A DNA stretch of 48,051 nucleotides, taken from the NCBI GenBank assembly GCA_964496905.1, contig CAZCAQ010000002.1:70147-118197 (forward strand), given 5' to 3'. The stretch's first letter is position 1; each line of letters starts with the position of its first letter. Below are positions 704 through 38,102 of this stretch, in pieces. This stretch comes from an uncultured Candidatus Saccharibacteria bacterium. GTDB lineage: Bacteria; Patescibacteriota; WWE3; UBA101185; UBA10185. The notes beneath the pieces are model-generated. The model had not been told where the DNA came from. It was given only the letters and a program-made list of their open reading frames with translations, and did no database searches. Position numbers and translations under genes: made by a program.

Positions 704-3100
704 ATGCCCAAAGTTTTTAAACTTAATAAGTCGCAAACCGGTTTTGCGCACCCCGTTTTAGTAGTTGGTCTTGGAATTGCATTTGTTCTAATTGCATTCC
801 TTTTATACAAAGGATTTAAAGAAAGACCTATTGAATCCACTTCATATCAAAATGAGGAGGTTGCAGGACTAAGCACTCCAAATAGCCAAATAGCCTCAAT
901 ACCAAAAGCCGAGTGCGATATTTTTGTGGCAACAAACGGTAACGATGACAACAATGGAAGTACTGAAAACACACCAGTTAGAAAAATACAGACTGCCGCA
1001 AACAGAGTACAAGCAGGGCAAGCAATTTGTATTAAAGGCGGAGAATACAGAGAAGTAGTTCTAATAGCCAATAAAAATGGAACAGCTGGAAATCCAATAA
1101 AAATTGGAGGCTACACAGGAGGTGGTTTACCAATAATTTCGGGAGGCATTACAAATAATGACGAATACACGTTACCAAATTCCAATTGTAAGGTCCTAGA
1201 TGTTTGTCAAGGTAATCCAAACAGTGCCGGCGGTTGTAATCAGCGTAACAGTTGTGTAAGACAAACACTCTTTAATATTATGGATTCGTCAAATTTACAA
1301 GTTTATGGTATCGATGTTAGAGGTTCCTCAGGAAGAGGCTTTGGTGTAGGTAATTCAAATGATATTTCTGTAAAAGGAGTTAGAAGCTATCACAACTGGT
1401 CACAAGGATTCCAAATTTGGTCTGAAACTGCAAACAGCGGAAACAACATTAATATGGATTACACAGCCACATACGACAACATAAGAGCTATGGCTGAAAA
1501 AGGTATTGCAGGCGGAGGGGCTATTCACGTTAACAAAATAAAGAGTGGTTCTATTAAAAATTCTTTAGTATTTGAAAACTTTGGCGAAGGCCTTGATGTA
1601 CACAAAGATTCAGCAGATTTTGAAGTCTCAAAAAGCATGTTCTGGGACAACTATCATGCGTTTTTGTACGCAAATGGCTCAACCGATGCAACACTCGATA
1701 GTAATTTGTTATTCTGCACAAAGAATAGAGTTTCTTGGCTTGAAGAAAATGGTGTAAATCCAGGAAAAACTACGGGATATGGATCAGCAATAACGCTAAG
1801 AAACGAAGAGGCTGTTACTAGGAAACACGGCGAGAATGGTGGCACAATCGCTTCTAACAACTTAATACTTGGATGCACTAATAGCATATTAATTGCAGGA
1901 CAAGGCGTAGCTACTCTGTCAGATGTTAAAGTTCTAAACAACACAATTGTTAGCCCAAGAGACTTTCCTGAAGGTGGGAAATTTGATGGCAAGCAGGGTG
2001 AAGGCATTTCGCTAGCGGGTAAATTAATAAATATACTTATTGAAAACAACGTAATACTTGCTGATTCAACAGGAGAATCTATTAATGGAGCCTCTATGGC
2101 ATCGGATCAAGTAAAGTATGTTAATAACATTGTGTCCACTGCTCCAGCTAGAACAAGAACTGGCGTTAGAGTTGCTGATCCTAAACTAGGCAGAAATGTT
2201 GAAGTTAACGAAGTTCTAAATCCATCCGATATTAGAGTTAATGATTATATGATAACTGCAGGATCTCCTGCAATTGGAGCAGGTGTTAAAACAGCAGGAT
2301 CAAGAGGCACACTAGATACAGACTTTTATGGAAATAGCAGAGGAAATAATCCAATTGACTTAGGCGCGTATGAATTTGGATCTTCCAAAAACTGGAATAA
2401 TTTATATGCAACAGTTATGACTGGGACGGGTAATACTGGAGGCGGTGGCGGCAATGGCGAACCTCCGGTACCTCCTACACCTGCCGACACAGACGGAGAC
2501 GGTATTCCAAACAAACAAGATGAGTGTCCAAGAACACCACAAGGCAATACTCCAGATCCTCAAAAACCAGGATGCCCACTAGACGAGGTTGTAACCGAGC
2601 CAGGAGTAAATAAAGTTAAAAACTCTGCCTTTAAAGATCCTGCAACACCTGGAACAGATGAAGTTGCACAATACTGGACAGTTAATACCGGAAGACTTGG
2701 AAGTGTAACAGCCAGCATTGAACGTGCTAGAAACACAGATTTAGCAAAAGGAGAAACATTATTAATTAATGTAGTCAAAAACCCTATCCAAGGAGCTGTA
2801 TATGTAGGGCAAAGTCCTGTCGACTTAGCACCATCGTCAAAATACGAAGTTAGTTTTGCAGCAAAGTCTTCTGCACTTGATAGCACGTTAATCGTAGATA
2901 TTAGAGAGCTAGGAGCGATTAAAGAGCCATTAGCTCCACGTAAAATAGTCAACTTGGAACAAGGTTGGAAACAGTACACATACACAATTGTGACCAGAAG
3001 ATACAATCCAAATAAAGCTGCAAAGCTTTTTATTAGAGTGGTTACACCAAACGCAAGTAATGTCACGCTAGATAATGTCGTAATTAAAGCTGTTAATTAA
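704..3100 (+). CDS. Membrane-anchored surface protein: right-handed beta-helix (pectate-lyase-fold-like) + TSP3-like Ca-binding linker + C-terminal CBM-like beta-sandwich (paralog A)
   Basis: 798-aa ORF with an N-terminal TM helix (GFAHPVLVVGLGIAFVLIAFLLY). N/G-rich turn repeats (ASNNLILGC, IENNVILADSTG, NNTIVSP) are typical of parallel beta-helices. It also has a DTDGDGIPNKQDECP motif and a C-terminal ~190-aa module starting KNSAFKD..W. Confidence 0.6.
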   Translation: MPKVFKLNKSQTGFAHPVLVVGLGIAFVLIAFLLYKGFKERPIESTSYQNEEVAGLSTPNSQIASIPKAECDIFVATNGNDDNNGSTENTPVRKIQTAANRVQAGQAICIKGGEYREVVLIANKNGTAGNPIKIGGYTGGGLPIISGGITNNDEYTLPNSNCKVLDVCQGNPNSAGGCNQRNSCVRQTLFNIMDSSNLQVYGIDVRGSSGRGFGVGNSNDISVKGVRSYHNWSQGFQIWSETANSGNNINMDYTATYDNIRAMAEKGIAGGGAIHVNKIKSGSIKNSLVFENFGEGLDVHKDSADFEVSKSMFWDNYHAFLYANGSTDATLDSNLLFCTKNRVSWLEENGVNPGKTTGYGSAITLRNEEAVTRKHGENGGTIASNNLILGCTNSILIAGQGVATLSDVKVLNNTIVSPRDFPEGGKFDGKQGEGISLAGKLINILIENNVILADSTGESINGASMASDQVKYVNNIVSTAPARTRTGVRVADPKLGRNVEVNEVLNPSDIRVNDYMITAGSPAIGAGVKTAGSRGTLDTDFYGNSRGNNPIDLGAYEFGSSKNWNNLYATVMTGTGNTGGGGGNGEPPVPPTPADTDGDGIPNKQDECPRTPQGNTPDPQKPGCPLDEVVTEPGVNKVKNSAFKDPATPGTDEVAQYWTVNTGRLGSVTASIERARNTDLAKGETLLINVVKNPIQGAVYVGQSPVDLAPSSKYEVSFAAKSSALDSTLIVDIRELGAIKEPLAPRKIVNLEQGWKQYTYTIVTRRYNPNKAAKLFIRVVTPNASNVTLDNVVIKAVN

Positions 3101-3111
3101 ATAAACAAAAA

Positions 3112-5508
3112 ATGAAAGTCTATGCAAAAGCTAATAAATCAACATCAGTAGGCTTTGCCCATCCAATACTGATGTTGGTGTTAGCTTGCATAGCATTAGT
3201 GGTAACATTTTTTGTCTATAAAGCATATAAGGAACGCCCATATGAATACAGTGAAATTCAAAGTGAAGCTGTAGCTGGGATAAGCACACCAAACAGTCAA
3301 ATTGCTTACATACCAAAGGCCGAGTGTGATTTATATGTTGCGACTAACGGAAACGATTCAAACTCAGGTGATTCTGAAAACTCCCCACTTAAAAAAATTC
3401 AAACTGGTGCAAATAAAGCTCAAGCTGGCCAGGCTGTATGTATAAAAGGCGGAGAGTATAGAGAAGTCGTTGAAATTTACAATAAGCACGGTACACCTCA
3501 AAATCCAATTGTAATAGGTGGGTATGCTGGTGGAGGATTACCAATTGTTTCAGGTGGAATTACAAACGGCGATGAATACATGCTCCCCGACGCTCAATGC
3601 AGAATAAAGGATGTTTGTAATTCTGATGTGCTAGATTCAGGAAAATGCACAAATAGAGATAATTGTATTAGAAGATTCTTATTTAACGTTTTGGAGTCTT
3701 CAAACATTCACATTTATGGCATTGATGTAAGAGGCTCGTCTGGTAGAGGTTTTGGCGTTTCAGAATCCAATGATGTTTATGTTAGAGGGGTAAGAACGTA
3801 CCACAACTGGTCCCAAGGGTTTCAATTTAATGCAGATATGCCTGGTAAGGGAAATAACATGTTTGCCGAATATATTGCCGTTTATGACAACATTAGAGCA
3901 ATGGCAGAGAAAAACTTAATTGGAGGTGGCGCAATCCATGTTAACAAAATTAAAGGTGGCTACATTAGAAATTCCTTAGTTTTTGAAAATTTTGGTGAAG
4001 GCTTAGATGTACATAAAGGAACTACCAATTTTGTAGTTGCAAAAAACATGCTCTGGGACAATTTTCACGCCTCTTTATATGCAAATGGTTCAACCAACGC
4101 TACTCTTGACTCTAATTTATTATTCTGTACTAAAAATAGGGTTAATTGGCTTGAGGAAAACGGGGTTAAGCCGGGTAAAGACACTGGTTACGGATCTGCA
4201 TTAACTTTACGAAATGAGGAAATAGTAACAAGTCAACATGGAGAAGGTGGCGGAACTATTGCATCTAACAATTTACTAGTGGGATGCACTGGAAATATTC
4301 TTATTGCAGCTCAAGGTGACGCCAAACTGGATGATGTGGCAGTTTTTAATAATACAATAGTTAGTCCAAGAGACTTCCCTGCTGTCAAAAATAAATATGA
4401 CGGAAAATCAGGTGAAGGTATCTCAATATCAGGTAAGGCTGGGGCTTTGCAAAACATACATATTGAGAATAATGTAATTCTCGCCGATTCAACAGGTGAT
4501 TCTATTATTGGCGGTGCAATGGGCTCCGATCAAATTACTTATATTAATAATTTAGTTTCAAAACCACCTTTAATTTCAAAAGCAGGCATAAGGGTTGCTG
4601 ATCCAAAAATAAAGAAAAATGTAGGAGAAGATGAGGTTTTGAACCCAGCTCATATAAATGCAGCGGATTATATGATTACAAATGCATCACCTGCTGTTAA
4701 CGCAGGAGCAAAGCCAGCAGTTTCTCGTAACTTGTTGGATCGCGACTTTTTTGGAAACATTAGAGGAAACAATCCAATAGACTTAGGTGCGTATGAAACT
4801 GGCATGACGGCCAACTGGTCCAACTTATATAATGTGATTATGCAAGGTGCCAGCAGTGGCTTAGAAGGCGCTGGCGATGATGAGGATCCTCCAGAACCTG
4901 CCAAAGACCCAGATAAAGATGGTGTACCTAATGATGGTACTGATAAGTGTCCAGAAGTAAATCAAGGAAGTAACCCAGATCCTAGCAAGCCAGGATGTCC
5001 CTTGGAATACGGCGTTAAAGTTAGCAACAAACTTAAAAACTCTTCGTTTGAAGAAGAAGCTTCGCCAGCTACCGATGAACTTGCAAAATATTGGATGTCA
5101 GAAAAAACATTTGCAGGACAGGTACGATACTCCTTAAGAAATGCTAATATTACTGACTTTTCAAGTGGGAACGCAGTACTAATAGAGGTTGTGAAAATAC
5201 CAATTAATCAGCCAAAAATAAGTCAAAGCGATATAATACTTATGCCAAATACTGCTTACAAAGTTAGTTTTTCAGCAAAATCGTCAGGAACAAATAGCAG
5301 AGTGACAATTGAACTTATAGAAATGGGAACTATGCAAAAACTGGTTGCACCTAGGAGATCAGTAAGACTAACTCCCGCTTGGACCAGTTACGACTTTGAT
5401 CTGAGGACAAAGAATTTCGATCCAACCAAAAAAGTTAAGTTGAACGTTAAATTTGCTGCTCCAAAAAACAGCAACATTGTAATAGATAACGTAGAACTTA
5501 AAAAGTAG
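3112..5508 (+). CDS. Membrane-anchored beta-helix surface protein, tandem paralog B
   Basis: 798-aa ORF located 11 nt after paralog A, with the same length and architecture. The first ~600 aa are about two-thirds identical by eye and the C-terminal module is much more divergent. The DPDKDGVPNDGTDKCP motif is present. Confidence 0.6.
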   Translation: MKVYAKANKSTSVGFAHPILMLVLACIALVVTFFVYKAYKERPYEYSEIQSEAVAGISTPNSQIAYIPKAECDLYVATNGNDSNSGDSENSPLKKIQTGANKAQAGQAVCIKGGEYREVVEIYNKHGTPQNPIVIGGYAGGGLPIVSGGITNGDEYMLPDAQCRIKDVCNSDVLDSGKCTNRDNCIRRFLFNVLESSNIHIYGIDVRGSSGRGFGVSESNDVYVRGVRTYHNWSQGFQFNADMPGKGNNMFAEYIAVYDNIRAMAEKNLIGGGAIHVNKIKGGYIRNSLVFENFGEGLDVHKGTTNFVVAKNMLWDNFHASLYANGSTNATLDSNLLFCTKNRVNWLEENGVKPGKDTGYGSALTLRNEEIVTSQHGEGGGTIASNNLLVGCTGNILIAAQGDAKLDDVAVFNNTIVSPRDFPAVKNKYDGKSGEGISISGKAGALQNIHIENNVILADSTGDSIIGGAMGSDQITYINNLVSKPPLISKAGIRVADPKIKKNVGEDEVLNPAHINAADYMITNASPAVNAGAKPAVSRNLLDRDFFGNIRGNNPIDLGAYETGMTANWSNLYNVIMQGASSGLEGAGDDEDPPEPAKDPDKDGVPNDGTDKCPEVNQGSNPDPSKPGCPLEYGVKVSNKLKNSSFEEEASPATDELAKYWMSEKTFAGQVRYSLRNANITDFSSGNAVLIEVVKIPINQPKISQSDIILMPNTAYKVSFSAKSSGTNSRVTIELIEMGTMQKLVAPRRSVRLTPAWTSYDFDLRTKNFDPTKKVKLNVKFAAPKNSNIVIDNVELKK

Positions 5509-34567: not shown

Positions 34568-35494
34568 TTATCTCTTTAAAACGCTAACCATGTACCTTGC
34601 AATACCATTTTCAACCAACGTAGGCATTAAATAACCAGCAACAGAATTCAAAACAAATTCTTTAGGCAATAGCAAATTCAACAATTTTGCAGTAATAGGC
34701 AAAGCAAAGTAAATCGAGGCCAGCTTCTCAAACCTTTTCATTGTGGGGAGTACATATTTAGACAAATCTTCTTCAAACTCTATACCAAATCCCGTTTCTT
34801 TAGCTTTTTGTACAAAACTTTCATAACTTTCAAAAGCTTGCAAAGCCATAGTTTTCTCGGTTAACTTACATGCCAACTCCTCGTCAGAAGATAAGACTTT
34901 TGAACCTCGGTAGCCATCAAAAACAATAAACAAGCCGACATTATTCAAAACCAAACTAACTTGCTCGAGCACCTTTTCTTTTTCAGTAGAATAACAAAGC
35001 GCCTCTACCACATACACTACATCAAACTTTATATCGTTAAATGTACTTAAGTCATGGTAATCCCCTAGCTCAACTTTTAAATTTCCAAGCTTTTCAGCTT
35101 TTTTTCTAGCGTATTTAATTTGCCCCTCCGACAGTTCCAACCCATAAAACTTTACATCTGGGTTATTTTTTGCCAAGTAGGCAGTGTTCGCACTGCGACC
35201 AGAAGCCAGTTCTAATACATTCTTTGCGCCAATCTTTTTAATATATGCATCAATAAAATGCGCCTGCGCTTTTAAATCCTCGTGCTTGTAAACTCCATCT
35301 CGGCTTATGCCCATATACATAAAATCGTCGTTAGTATGAAAAAGTGAATACGCAATGCTATTTACTTTGTAATAAGTTTGAATATCGGTAAGCTCAATAT
35401 TTTGATTCACTATAGTTTGAGCATCGTAAACAGCTGAAATCTTTTGAAGTTTATTTTTAAGTGAAATGGAGCCACGATTTATTTTAACACGCAA
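34568..35494 (-). CDS. Class I SAM-dependent methyltransferase
   Basis: Motif I is VLELASGRSANTAYLA, followed by an acidic post-I residue (YGLELSE). It lies 2 nt downstream of the 35497-36408 gene, so the two likely form an operon. Confidence 0.7.
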   Translation of the reverse strand: MRVKINRGSISLKNKLQKISAVYDAQTIVNQNIELTDIQTYYKVNSIAYSLFHTNDDFMYMGISRDGVYKHEDLKAQAHFIDAYIKKIGAKNVLELASGRSANTAYLAKNNPDVKFYGLELSEGQIKYARKKAEKLGNLKVELGDYHDLSTFNDIKFDVVYVVEALCYSTEKEKVLEQVSLVLNNVGLFIVFDGYRGSKVLSSDEELACKLTEKTMALQAFESYESFVQKAKETGFGIEFEEDLSKYVLPTMKRFEKLASIYFALPITAKLLNLLLPKEFVLNSVAGYLMPTLVENGIARYMVSVLKR

Positions 35495-35496
35495 AA

Positions 35497-36408
35497 CTAT
35501 TTATACAGGCGCTTTCTACCGTTACCATTTTTTAAATTAGAATACTTTCTAAACTCACAGCCAATGCCTTCCCAATTTTCTGCCGATAACCAAACCTTTT
35601 TGCCGTTAAAAATTAAATAAGGAAAATCTGTTATTTTTGTGCCCACTAAAGCTAAACAAACATTTTCAGGAATTTCCTCAGAATTTAGCTTTTTCATTGT
35701 TGGAATAGATCCCGGCCCAATAGGAAACTCTTTATACAAATCAATGTGATCTGGAAATTGGTAAGCCAAATCAATAAGAACCTCTGTCCAATGAAATTTA
35801 AAGTTTAATCCAAAAACTGGCAAAATTTGGTTTAGGGCATTTACAACACTTAACTTATCAAAACTCTCAATTACTTCTGTAACCTGCTTTATAACCGTGG
35901 GCAAGTAAAAACAAAAAAACTCCTCTCGCGTATGAAAACCTACTTTACTAACCAATGAGATTGGAAAAATATACGCACTGCCATACTTTGGCAATGACAG
36001 ATTCATCAGCTTATCAAACACTTTTTTGTTTTCAGCTTCGTTAAATGTCAAAAGTCCAACTTTTTTATTTGTTGACGGCTTGCATACCATTCTATAAAAC
36101 AATGCGTTTAGTAACCATAAAGCTAGTGACCCTTCAAGCTCTTTTAGCTGTGTGTGAATTTGGATTGTTTGAGCATCCAGCTCTCTATAAACATTGCAAA
36201 ACCTATATCTGGAAAGAATTGGATCTGTTGTGTATGGTGTTGTTGCATTAGTGCTCTTTTTCTCCCAAATGCGCATGCGTTCGATTGTAAAGGATTTCAT
36301 TTGCAAGACTATACTTGCATCGAGACTAAGCGTATTTTCATTATCAAAAACATATGTATGATGATGCCAATGTTTATAGAGCTGTTTTAAGTTTTGTGGT
36401 ATTTCCAT
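35497..36408 (-). CDS. Protein resembling the family linked to phage thymidine hypermodification (aGPT-pyrophosphorylase / 5-hmdU-DNA-kinase-associated helical domain); tentative
   Basis: ERMRIWEKKSTNATTPYTTDPILSRYRFCNVYRELDAQT matches my recollection of the family signature (W/Y-T-x-D-P-I-L-x-x-Y-[RK]-F-x-N-V-[YF]-R-E-x-D). The C-terminus has GCEFRKY. No search was run. Confidence 0.4.
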   Translation of the reverse strand: MEIPQNLKQLYKHWHHHTYVFDNENTLSLDASIVLQMKSFTIERMRIWEKKSTNATTPYTTDPILSRYRFCNVYRELDAQTIQIHTQLKELEGSLALWLLNALFYRMVCKPSTNKKVGLLTFNEAENKKVFDKLMNLSLPKYGSAYIFPISLVSKVGFHTREEFFCFYLPTVIKQVTEVIESFDKLSVVNALNQILPVFGLNFKFHWTEVLIDLAYQFPDHIDLYKEFPIGPGSIPTMKKLNSEEIPENVCLALVGTKITDFPYLIFNGKKVWLSAENWEGIGCEFRKYSNLKNGNGRKRLYK

Positions 36409-36487: not shown

Positions 36488-37132
36488 CTACAACATGGTT
36501 ACAACTTGCCTGGCAAGTTTTAGGGCAGCTCTCGCCTTTTCGAGCGACTCAGCAAGATATTCAGGTGTTCCGTCAGGAAACATGATACCCACATACGCGG
36601 GATTGATCCAAGACATTTGCAACGTGTTGACCCACCTGCCATCTACAAACACATCACAATCGTACTGTCCCGAAACACGATAGCCCATCCGTTCCAGTGC
36701 CTTACGCGAAGCTATGTTTGGTTCACGCACTTGGCTCTGAATTGTGCAAAGATTCAGCTTTACCACATACAGAGTACGTGCCAAATGTGCTAAAGTGCCA
36801 ACACGTCTTCCTCGCCACTCAGGATTGAGAATAAGGATACCCGATGTACATTTGCGACTGATCAAATCAATCTTATGAAGACCAGTTCTGCCAACAGGCC
36901 TATCACAACCATCGGGTACTATAGCCCAGTGAATACCAGTGCTATCTTTTCGGGTTTTTTCCCACCATTCTTCCTCGTCAGCTGTTGTTGGAGCATGCCA
37001 CATGTTCGTGTAACGAACTCCTTCGCCGTTAGCAAGATATTCCGCGAATTCGCCCACTTCCTCTTTTGTGGGAGGACGAAGCGTAATGCCCATACCTTCC
37101 CACTCAACGCGCATACTAAATCCAAATGCCAT
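36488..37132 (-). CDS. GNAT-family N-acetyltransferase (RimJ/RimL-like) in a ~50% GC island
   Basis: ITLRPPTKEEV...NPEWRGRRVGTLAHLARTLYVV..REPNIASRKALERMGY. I prefer ATG 37132, preceded by AAAGGAGAAATATC. The upstream part of the ORF-track frame up to 37303 is leader. Confidence 0.75.
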   Translation of the reverse strand: MAFGFSMRVEWEGMGITLRPPTKEEVGEFAEYLANGEGVRYTNMWHAPTTADEEEWWEKTRKDSTGIHWAIVPDGCDRPVGRTGLHKIDLISRKCTSGILILNPEWRGRRVGTLAHLARTLYVVKLNLCTIQSQVREPNIASRKALERMGYRVSGQYDCDVFVDGRWVNTLQMSWINPAYVGIMFPDGTPEYLAESLEKARAALKLARQVVTML

Positions 37133-37165
37133 GATATTTCTCCTTTCAATGTGCAAACCTTTTTT

Positions 37166-37214
37166 AACCAACAGACACCTTGCCAAACAGCCAGGTGCTT
37201 TGAATTTGTTGGTT
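37166..37214 (-). promoter_or_regulatory. 49-nt stem-loop in the GNAT 5' leader
   Basis: AACCAACA (37214-37207)/TGTTGGTT (37173-37166) with an inner CACCT/AGGTG pairing; it ends ~33 nt before the ATG. Confidence 0.4.
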
Positions 37215-37265
37215 TTAAGAAGACTCCAAGGAGAAAATTGTGCAAATTTGGGTGGAATTATAGAT

Positions 37266-37289
37266 AAAAAAACCTCCGATTGGAGGCTT
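37266..37289 (-). terminator. Intrinsic terminator (AAGCCUCC-AAUC-GGAGGUUU + U-run)
   Basis: The minus-strand hairpin is followed by T7 (plus-strand A-run at 37266-37272). Confidence 0.7.
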
Positions 37290-37316
37290 ATCAAAACTAG
37301 CAAAATAATTGAGGAT

Positions 37317-37427
37317 TTAGACCAGTAGATAAGCCAAATATTTAACTGAACCGACCATGACGGGGTTCTGTATAGCGCAAATAGAGGCGCTAGATGTTAA
37401 ATTGTGGCTTAAACACTGCTTATGCAT
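37317..37427 (-). CDS. Candidate leaderless 36-aa ORF (MHKQCLSHNLTSSASICAIQNPVMVGSVKYLAYLLV) overlapping the structured RNA
   Basis: The ATG lies exactly 6 nt downstream of TATAAT, the same geometry as bona fide genes in this window. Confidence 0.25.
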   Translation of the reverse strand: MHKQCLSHNLTSSASICAIQNPVMVGSVKYLAYLLV

Positions 37428-37433
37428 GAAATT

Positions 37434-37461
37434 ATTATACTATGGGTTTTTGGGTTGTAAA
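37434..37461 (-). promoter_or_regulatory. Promoter TTTACA-16 nt-TATAAT
   Basis: On the minus strand, TTTACA at 37461-37456 and TATAAT at 37439-37434, starting 2 nt after the upstream stop codon. Confidence 0.6.
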
Positions 37462-37463
37462 GA

Positions 37464-38102
37464 CTAATCTATTTGTTCGATAGAAGATAGGATTTTATCT
37501 AGTTCTTGCTCATATCCTTGACCACGCTCGTCAGCAAAACTTTTTAGAATAAATATGCTTTTTTTTGGAAAATCAGGATGTTTCAAGTAAATGCAAGTTT
37601 GCGACACAAGAAACGGGCATTTAAAAGAGTATCCAGACAAATTGCCAAATTTAACTTGTACAATGGCATTTGTGTCTGGTGAAATCTTCTCTGAAATCTC
37701 GGGTCTGTTAAAATCTGCGACAACATCATTATATAGACTTCCCTGTAGATCTAATAAAGATATACGCAATTGCGAAAAATCTCTAGGACCAGGGCCTTCT
37801 TCACTGTGTATACCATGAAATGAAACTGTATAGTTGTAGGCGTCTCCGCTTATGTTATAGGTCTCAGGGACTACAAAGCTAATTCTATTGAGGGTGTCTG
37901 TTATTTGCACAGAACCATCTGAAAGTGTTTGCGTAAAAAGTTTTTTGTCCATATCGGCTTTTATTCGGCTATGCTGCGTCTTAGATACGGGCAACTTTTT
38001 GACCAATTGTGCAGAGCGTACGTAAGTGCCAATTAGTAACAAAATTACAATACAAAGTAAAATTAACAATAGTACAGTAGAAAATCCTAAATTGTTTTTC
38101 AC
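37464..38102 (-). CDS. Hypothetical membrane-anchored extracytoplasmic protein
   Basis: 212-aa ORF with an N-terminal TM helix and a GTG start preceded by a TAATATTAATAT tandem -10-like box. Confidence 0.5.
   Translation of the reverse strand: MKNNLGFSTVLLLILLCIVILLLIGTYVRSAQLVKKLPVSKTQHSRIKADMDKKLFTQTLSDGSVQITDTLNRISFVVPETYNISGDAYNYTVSFHGIHSEEGPGPRDFSQLRISLLDLQGSLYNDVVADFNRPEISEKISPDTNAIVQVKFGNLSGYSFKCPFLVSQTCIYLKHPDFPKKSIFILKSFADERGQGYEQELDKILSSIEQID

Follow-up and report, generated by a model that had tools for sequence, protein, structure and literature searches.

A 48,051-nucleotide (nt) stretch of contig CAZCAQ010000002.1 (assembly GCA_964496905.1, positions 70,147 to 118,197), from an uncultured Candidatus Saccharibacteria bacterium of the GTDB lineage WWE3 and here called the window, carries on its minus strand a promoter, a strongly folded RNA and an intrinsic terminator in front of a GNAT acetyltransferase gene. 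The question raised by this locus is what decides whether transcription stops at that terminator or continues into the gene. An earlier note on the same DNA had proposed a riboswitch- or attenuator-like element with a three-way junction as aptamer, or else a stand-alone small RNA (sRNA) of about 160 nt. The part of this proposal that survives is a conserved transcription attenuator of the GNAT gene; the junction as aptamer or ligand sensor does not. We consider it probable that the region is a ribosome-dependent (leader-peptide) transcription attenuator, of the trp or antibiotic upstream open reading frame (uORF) type, that senses slowed translation. The cassette runs in the order promoter, folded leader, terminator, structured 5' untranslated region (5'UTR) and GNAT gene, and comparison among relatives supports this order as a real cis-regulatory unit under selection. 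The earlier note missed an ATG at 37427, the open reading frame (ORF) that starts there and the antiterminator pairing; the rest of its observation was confirmed.

The -35 box TTTACA (37461-37456) starts 2 nt past the stop codon (37466-37464) of an upstream 212-amino-acid ORF and is followed by a 16-nt spacer, the -10 box TATAAT (37439-37434) and a 6-nt discriminator. The coordinates first reported for this pair are correct, and a promoter scan ranked it as the top sigma70-like site across 35-40 kb of the window, with 11 of the 12 consensus bases matched; promoter-like sites in that interval are no more numerous than expected from shuffling. A TTGACA-like equivalent of the -35 box is present in 31 members of the family described below. 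Counted from TATAAT, the A of the ATG at 37427 comes seventh, at the canonical +1 position, and in about 27 of the 31 loci an ATG lies 6-9 nt past the -10 box of the best promoter, as located by a search blind to ATG positions. Promoter geometry, a prediction from sequence, makes the A of the ATG +1, and in most members the discriminator is 6 nt long; we infer that transcription starts at 37427 and that the transcript is leaderless. The earlier note had also pointed to a second TATAAT (37262-37257) beyond the terminator. This hexamer has no -35 box, is deleted in the closely related locus L005 and is not conserved, and it does not hold up as a promoter. No conserved promoter was found between terminator and GNAT in the family, so transcription of the gene is expected to depend on read-through.

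At least 31 loci in 23 sequence clusters (<75% identity over the ORF part) carry the cassette, and the carriers include WWE3, many Saccharibacteria, two Dojkabacteria and other Patescibacteria. The loci were collected by fetching distant GNAT homologues and by two DNA-pattern scans of 185,579 species genomes, of which the first, with a loose pattern for the conserved box described below, gave mostly chance matches among those listed and the second, with a tighter pattern, succeeded. Pattern matches in Pseudoalteromonas, Flavobacterium, Paenibacillus and Acetobacter have no promoter, ORF or GNAT and were discounted as chance. A DNA pattern drawn from the helices only (GCCANNATTTAAC...GTTAAATNNNTGGC) gave 0 matches in the 185,579 genomes, since the helices covary and are unusable as a search key, and a scan of metagenome proteins gave 3 loci only. 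One contig labelled as a Dongiaceae metagenome-assembled genome (L159) carries a leader and GNAT of the Saccharibacteria type (MNRLVSYQY... and MAFGPIMRF...) and is probably mis-binned.

The element sits in a gap of ~230-320 nt before a homologue of the same GNAT family (the downstream ORF was not read in L172), and the flanking genes vary from lineage to lineage. The closest relatives, L005 and L006, encode GNATs with 85% amino-acid identity to that of the window. Their similarity to the window sets in abruptly at the -35 box and extends to the GNAT ATG; upstream of the box the sequences are unrelated. Identity to L005 is 86% in the leader, 90% in the part after the terminator, 81% in the GNAT coding sequence and 78.5% in the next gene. 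These limits of homology, together with a leader identity that exceeds coding identity, argue that the element belongs to the GNAT gene and is under purifying selection.

The RNA expected from this promoter folds strongly. The 103 nt from 37422 to 37320 reach -33.1 kcal/mol (z = -5.0), with 0 of 200 dinucleotide shuffles as good, and the full span from 37427 to 37266, including the terminator, reaches -46.1 kcal/mol (z = -4.7). The hand-drawn fold of the earlier note proved to be exactly the ViennaRNA minimum-energy and centroid structure, with helices 37418-37414/37327-37323, 37411-37405/37336-37330 and 37402-37396/37346-37340 and hairpins 37392-37373 and 37368-37348. Its argument that a G-U pair makes the fold strand-specific is correct but weak, as the plus strand also folds, less strongly (-30.1 kcal/mol, z = -3.5); the strand is assigned because promoter, terminator and ORF fix it. 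The 5' strand of the rod, region 1 (37418-37396; CAGUG, UAAGCCA and AUUUAAC), pairs in the minimum-energy fold, and a basal rod is predicted in every lineage folded: in 12 of 12 the initial ~30 nt of the fold pair with its final ~30 nt and the box pairs with the 5' end; z ranges from -1.0 to -5.4 and is below -2.8 in 10 of the 12. In a Saccharibacteria subgroup aligned by register, six consecutive rod pairs are 100% paired, with C-G replaced by U-A five times, A-U by G-C once, and no pair broken. The first helix as originally drawn (CAGUG/UACUG) is not retained: it is disrupted in L005 (CACUG/UUCUG), where UUUAGAC/GUCUAAA further out takes over.

The 3' strand of the rod, region 2 (37346-37323), contains a near-invariant box, GGCUUAUC(U) at 37335-37327, which the leader ORF would read as Ala-Tyr-Leu. 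As GGCUUAUCU the box is the same in 31 members, with a sole change of G to A in L008 and L009. Its complement, (A)GAUAAGCC, lies 37-53 nt downstream and doubles as the 5' half of the terminator stem; in the window GAUAAGCC occupies 37292-37285 within region 3 (37302-37285), the predicted antiterminator strand, where GCUAGU (37302-37297) can extend the duplex by pairing with ACUGGU (37326-37321). The terminator itself, AAGCCUCC-AAUC-GGAGGUUU plus a U-run (regions 3 and 4, 37289-37266), was recovered by a terminator scan where the earlier note had placed it, with a stem at 37289-37270 of 8 pairs (4 G-C) and a U-run to 37266, and it folds. Among the leaders this stem is conserved as GAUAAGCCUCC-loop-GGAGG-U(n). 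A terminator/antiterminator platform coupled to the closing helix of the fold is present.

Pairing of regions 2 and 3 is calculated at -13.1 kcal/mol in the window; across 14 lineages the values lie between -12 and -17 kcal/mol, compared with -5.5 to -13 kcal/mol for the terminator. Over 14 sequences 98% of the cells of the box:region 3 helix are paired. The G to A change in the box of L008 and L009 is matched by C to U in the complement and by G to A in the 3' half of the terminator, so that, judged from the alignment, one column covaries in both alternative helices. As modeled, the rod (1:2), the antiterminator (2:3) and the terminator (3:4) are mutually exclusive, which is the four-segment layout of an attenuator. 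When the leaders were folded in silico without masking, the terminator formed in 31/31; when region 1 was masked, the box shifted to region 3 at equilibrium in 21/31, the window included.

An indication of what reads this switch comes from the leader ORF. From the promoter-proximal ATG an ORF of 25-42 codons spans the entire fold, and in the window it has 36 codons and a TAA (MHKQCLSHNLTSSASICAIQNPVMVGSVKYLAYLLV*, 37427-37317). Between ATG and box, the 23 clusters contain no stop codon in frame 0, and frames 1 and 2 have 38 and 57. By shuffling, the chance that the frame is open is 0.08-0.35 per cluster, and the joint chance would be ~1e-16 if the clusters were independent; as they are not phylogenetically independent, the joint figure is an upper bound on the significance. 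The distance from ATG to box takes 14 distinct values from 66 to 111 nt, all multiples of 3, and the box is thereby read as Ala-Tyr-Leu despite many indels. In four further length classes (80, 83, 85 and 88 nt) the box is out of frame, and here a UAA or UAG starts 5 or 2 nt before the box, or the frame reads through with a stop 14-20 nt later; in five clusters the box lies in another frame or beyond the stop. In 31/31 members a stop codon falls in the interval from 5 nt ahead of the box start to 20 nt beyond it (in the window, 7 nt past the box), a position in which a terminating ribosome would sit on region 2. Since every lineage preserves an uninterrupted ORF from the predicted +1 across the fold, the ribosome is the likely sensor; a riboswitch, a protein-binding leader or an sRNA would require neither the frame nor the start and stop signals.

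We propose that the switch would work as follows. Transcription would start at the A of the ATG at 37427, and a ribosome would load on the 5' AUG of the nascent leaderless RNA and translate the 36-codon ORF through the whole folded region. The four segments would be the 5' strand of the rod (region 1), the strand with the box GGCUUAUCU (region 2), GAUAAGCC (region 3) and GGAGGUUU with the U-run (region 4). With no ribosome, the 1:2 rod and the 3:4 terminator would form and transcription would end at ~37266. A fast ribosome reaching the stop codon would cover region 2, and again the 3:4 helix would form and transcription would end. A ribosome slowed or stalled early, within the first ~25 codons, would mask region 1 and free region 2, which could pair with region 3 as it emerges; the terminator would be blocked and the polymerase would read into the GNAT gene. 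A hairpin that sequesters the Shine-Dalgarno (SD) sequence in the 5'UTR would act as a second, translational lock.

The signal is the least certain step. General slowing of elongation, by an inhibitor or by stress, is more likely than starvation for a single amino acid, because the leader peptides have no runs of one codon; amino-acid-specific attenuation was rejected on the same ground. Such runs are diagnostic of the subclass that controls amino-acid operons and are not a mark of the subclass that senses antibiotics or stress. Cys, Tyr and Asn are mildly enriched in the peptides. Those of L007 and L015 (WWE3) start with MRFR, which we take to resemble the N-terminal MRLR macrolide-arrest motif of ErmDL; this start is absent from other lineages and may be coincidence.

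Several points weigh against a ribosome-sensing attenuator. The start site, the translation of the ORF, termination and the direction of the switch are deduced from sequence and thermodynamic prediction, and a full-text literature search found no report of leaderless translation in Patescibacteria or Saccharibacteria. The runs of one codon by which classical amino-acid sensing is recognized are missing, the peptide sequence is poorly conserved and diverges fast outside the RNA-constrained parts, and the conserved Arg-Tyr codons near the N-terminus and the Ala-Tyr-Leu codons are accounted for by RNA pairing alone. Covariation in the antiterminator amounts to few events, since both strands are nearly invariant. 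With region 1 masked, the terminator still wins at equilibrium in 10/31 leaders, for which kinetic control must be assumed, and U-tracts are poor in some members (L105, L106 and L043) and weak in several of the Saccharibacteria. The distal domain between the two strands of the rod is structured more strongly and consistently than a simple attenuator needs, and its two-hairpin junction persists in three lineages despite total turnover of sequence, which hints at a further role.

Among relatives with GNATs 38-44% identical, six leaders (L010, L013, L024, L028, L029 and L031) are variants that lack the GCUUAUCU box. All six have an ATG 6-9 nt past the -10 box, from which a frame of 18-33 codons stays open. 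Region 2 of L029 and L013 consists of GGAGGUUUA or GGAGGCUU, which copies the 3' half of the terminator. L010, L028 and L031 have no obvious intrinsic terminator and contain three overlapping segments with CUAG; these three leaders may be a translational version of the switch.

The regulated gene (36488-37132, minus strand) encodes a 214-amino-acid protein of the RimJ/RimL/SpeG-like type (PF13302, Acetyltransf_3, E = 1e-15), in agreement with the earlier assignment to RimJ/RimL-like acetyltransferases and with the start proposed there, an SD sequence AAGGAG and ATG 37132. Public gene calls begin the gene at TTG 37303 (36488-37303, 271 amino acids), through the terminator and the 5'UTR hairpin. 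The 214-amino-acid start is preferred because of the SD sequence and ATG 37132 and because the MFG/MAFG N-terminus is conserved in all homologues; the exact 214-amino-acid product is not on record in the gene-position index, as callers use the 271-amino-acid form. The homologues make up a small family with N-termini MFG... or MAFGPIMRF.... The solved structures nearest to the GNAT of the window are an uncharacterized Brucella GNAT (3tcv) and SpeG spermidine acetyltransferases (E 1e-7 to 1e-5), and NCBIfam gave only sub-threshold matches to PseH, SpeG and ArsN1. The G+C content of the gene, put at about 50% in the earlier note, is 47.8% in the coding sequence, compared with 36.7% in the window, 36.5% in the leader and 34-36% in neighboring genes. 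This shift, together with the different neighbors in each lineage, suggests from composition and synteny that leader and GNAT form a laterally mobile cassette within Patescibacteria.

The 5'UTR proper (37265-37133), at 90% identity to L005 above the coding sequence in conservation, is itself structured. In the minimum-energy fold a pyrimidine tract, UUUCUCCUU (37236-37228), pairs with the SD region AAGGAGAAA (37145-37137), and the pairing encloses the 49-nt stem-loop (37214-37166) noticed earlier. The SD sequence is paired in ~14 of 21 lineages, with partner sequences that depend on the lineage. Nearly all members (the window and 20 related loci) have UGGAG(G/U)(C/U) after the terminator, a further copy of the 3' half of the terminator, and then a long hairpin whose apex often holds a second AAGGAGG. 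The predicted SD-sequestering hairpin probably adds translational control. As a speculation, the freed 3' half of the terminator (GGAGG) might titrate the anti-SD tract of the 5'UTR, a pairing of 4-5 bp in the window.

One alternative is a metabolite riboswitch of the OFF type, in which a ligand would stabilize the 1:2 rod and hence the terminator, the box would pair with region 3 in the absence of ligand to turn GNAT on, and the ORF would be incidental. Such a reading fits a strong and significant fold, a leader that exceeds classical attenuators in length and structure, and a terminator/antiterminator platform that shares the 3' strand of the closing helix, a layout found in real riboswitches. 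In the window the domain (37392-37348) consists of the two hairpins 37392-37373 and 37368-37348, which form the three-way junction, and this arrangement recurs with full covariation in the pairs window/L005 and L011/L014 and in L018, its shape retained through complete sequence turnover. In L005 helices 2 and 3 and the two hairpins are retained, and hairpin 1 has a single compensatory A-U to G-C change. Against a riboswitch, the distal architecture is specific to lineages: L007 and L015 form a single hairpin, L008 and L009 a long irregular one, and L021, L043, L105 and L106 multibranch shapes. The basal rod alone is general. No nucleotide of the junction or loops is shared across lineages, nor even between the window and L005, where the junction strands change from AUC to ACU, UACA to CAAA and A to C and almost every junction base is altered. 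Because the distal shape varies and these bases are not conserved, no ligand pocket is evident. The earlier note had proposed a search for the junction before GNAT genes of relatives with a test of covariation; the cassette and covariation of its rod were found, and the junction is limited to some lineages.

RNAalifold found no consensus structure on a MAFFT alignment of 14 whole leaders, which is explained by helix registers that vary among lineages, and box-anchored ungapped alignments were used in its place. The Rfam 15 scan at gathering score gave no match in the whole window, nor on the leader in 15 related loci; the earlier note had remarked that the junction strands do not match purine, thiamine pyrophosphate or hammerhead cores. 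At E<10 over 36900-37700 there were chance-level matches only (ceN82, rimP leader, and RNAI on the terminator). A riboswitch would also leave unexplained the ATG at +1, the 0/38/57 distribution of stops, the frame-preserving indels and the fixed position of the stop codon. We regard it as unlikely.

The box and its complement are conserved in sequence, beyond mere pairing, which would fit sequence-specific recognition by a trans-acting factor (the GNAT itself, a ribosomal protein, or an RNA) that binds either strand and thereby selects terminator or antiterminator. Leaders read by a factor are familiar from L10(L12)4/rplJL and from PyrR/TRAP-type control, and RimJ/RimL-like GNATs as a family act on ribosomal proteins, a property that would suit such a circuit, as would the third GGAGG(C/U) copy after the terminator. 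There is precedent in the protein-mediated attenuation reported for a ribosomal protein operon (PMC4538822). The conservation of the box is already accounted for by its triple constraint of pairing with region 1, pairing with region 3 and coding; no candidate factor is encoded nearby, and the neighbors differ in each lineage; and the ORF signals would remain unexplained. Control by such a factor is very unlikely on this evidence.

If the strong promoter and the terminator instead delimited an independent small gene, the ~160-nt transcript would act as an sRNA or encode a 36-amino-acid protein and GNAT would be expressed separately; in a variant, the N-acetyltransferase would have the peptide as its substrate or partner. 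The ORF does stay open, and action in trans is reported for released attenuator RNAs and leader peptides, as with rnTrpL and peTrpL (PMC6614838, PMC7298713), in what may be an additional and not an exclusive role. The peptide diverges fast outside the RNA-constrained parts, however, and its Ala-Tyr-Leu motif is not essential, given the five clusters with the box in another frame or past the stop. The element is always linked to one gene family, a strict linkage that the stand-alone sRNA of the earlier note leaves unexplained, and no conservation independent of that gene was found; there is no conserved promoter before GNAT, and complementarity between box and region 3 would be purposeless in a simple terminated gene. 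We hold an independent gene to be very improbable, and the terminated ~160-nt RNA or its peptide may still have trans roles within the attenuator proposed here. The peptide is an improbable precursor of a peptide made on the ribosome and modified after translation, and an improbable type I toxin, as it is neither conserved nor hydrophobic and has no linked processing or export genes.

We give almost no credence to an ordinary 3'UTR or terminator of the 212-amino-acid gene, the refuting scenario of the earlier note, or to a chance palindrome or mobile-element remnant: the element does start just past the upstream stop codon and its plus strand folds too (z = -3.5), but homology begins at the -35 box, the upstream orphan is swapped for unrelated genes in relatives while the element is retained, promoter, ORF and terminator all point towards GNAT, and the element has no second copy in the window and is absent from a phage collection, where BLAST gave a single match of 26 nt at chance level. 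The upstream ORF (37464-38102, minus strand) has an N-terminal hydrophobic segment. Among 5.8 billion clustered proteins it has no homologues save identical copies, and as an orphan it was useless as a synteny anchor.

Other features of the window and of related loci are noted here. BipA encoded in the window finds its closest named matches (71-78% identity) in candidate division WWE3, which places the stretch on a chromosome of WWE3 (Patescibacteria). Directly downstream of GNAT, a 303-amino-acid protein (35497-36408, minus strand) matches PF18723, HMUDK_hel (E = 5e-19), the helical domain of the 5-hydroxymethyldeoxyuridine DNA kinase of thymidine-hypermodifying phages, and beyond it lies an S-adenosylmethionine-dependent methyltransferase gene (34568-35494, minus strand). 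The enzyme is unexpected on a WWE3 chromosome, and its synteny with GNAT is retained solely in L005; it could point to DNA hypermodification or a phage-derived island. Two tandem ORFs of 798 amino acids each (704-3100 and 3112-5508, plus strand) have no Pfam match and may be a duplicated large surface or unknown protein. No tRNA or transfer-messenger RNA was found in the window. In one Saccharibacteria locus, L105, an MDR-NUDIX RNA (RF02918, 62.8 bits) at 3989-4053 on the minus strand is unrelated to the leader.

A wider hypothesis, which we offer tentatively and consider possible rather than probable, is that the cassette is a phylum-wide, self-contained sensor of translation stress, in which a leaderless uORF attenuator and an SD lock would keep GNAT off except when ribosomes slow, and in which the GNAT would acetylate an inhibitor of translation (an antibiotic, or a toxin of the aminoacyl-adenylate type from host or competitors) or else a component of the translation apparatus. 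If this were true, no earlier cis-regulatory RNA family, and no earlier inducible circuit for resistance or stress, would have been described that is specific to these ultrasmall episymbionts. To our knowledge, very little is known of gene regulation in Patescibacteria (the Candidate Phyla Radiation), and a compact, portable cassette conserved from WWE3 to Saccharibacteria offers a handle on transcription-translation coupling and leaderless initiation. The ribosome-sensing reading would mark the GNAT as a gene kept off unless translation is disturbed, a strong clue to its function. The analysis also corrects a recurrent annotation error, in which automatic calls add 57 codons to the GNAT by running through the terminator, and provides a cautionary case in which a convincing hand-folded "aptamer" appears to be lineage-specific decoration on a ribosome-sensing switch.

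Attenuators of this kind are known. So far as can be judged from Rfam 15 and the searchable literature, the element itself has not been described; full-text searches turned up no account of the leader or of attenuators in Patescibacteria. Classical leader-peptide attenuators control the trp, his, leu, thr and ilv operons of Proteobacteria. The element resembles them in its short leader ORF, in the exclusive helices 1:2, 2:3 and 3:4, in a stop codon placed for a terminating ribosome to cover segment 2, and in the predicted termination of an untranslated leader. It differs in having no tandem cognate codons, in regulating a GNAT rather than a biosynthetic operon, in a long ORF (25-42 codons) that spans a large, structured and variable distal domain, in a start codon at the predicted +1, which would make the transcript leaderless and without an SD sequence, and in its occurrence in Patescibacteria. 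Leader peptides have also been reported for the trpE, leuA and ilvB leaders of Corynebacterium (PMC3890552). Mycobacteria have leaderless sensory short ORFs, the polycysteine "Cys ribulon" (Canestrari et al., 10.1101/834739), in which the first reading frame starts at a 5' AUG and pausing within it remodels downstream RNA and thereby controls the operon; for the element both features are predicted. The mycobacterial ORFs sense cysteine through poly-Cys tracts and act by sequestering the ribosome-binding site, whereas the element has no codon tract and uses a terminator/antiterminator switch, beside which an SD-sequestering hairpin is also present downstream.

A further comparison is with toiL of the Escherichia coli topAI-yjhQ operon, a uORF without amino-acid-specific codons that senses many ribosome inhibitors (PMC12121999), and the antibiotic-inducible leaders of ermK, vmlR, msrD and lmo0919/hflXr (PMC6310831, 10.1101/2021.11.29.470318) belong to the same comparison. 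Like these antibiotic and stress uORFs, the element has no amino-acid-specific codons, and ribosome occupancy is predicted to decide between termination and read-through, a parallel that makes a response to general translation stress plausible. toiL works by occlusion of the ribosome-binding site and Rho, and the element has an intrinsic terminator. Unlike the antibiotic leaders, it conserves no known arrest motif, MRFR being confined to L007 and L015, and its GNAT is not a known resistance enzyme (nearest PDB entries SpeG and 3tcv, E 1e-5 to 1e-7). With three-way-junction riboswitches (purine, thiamine pyrophosphate) it has in common the order promoter, structured domain, terminator and gene and the use of the 3' strand of the closing helix in the antiterminator; it differs from them in lacking a conserved core, a conserved architecture and an Rfam match, and in the translated-looking ORF that overlaps the whole "aptamer". 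The element is thus distinct from all the systems compared in its sequence, its phylum, its regulated gene and its large, variable, structured insert.

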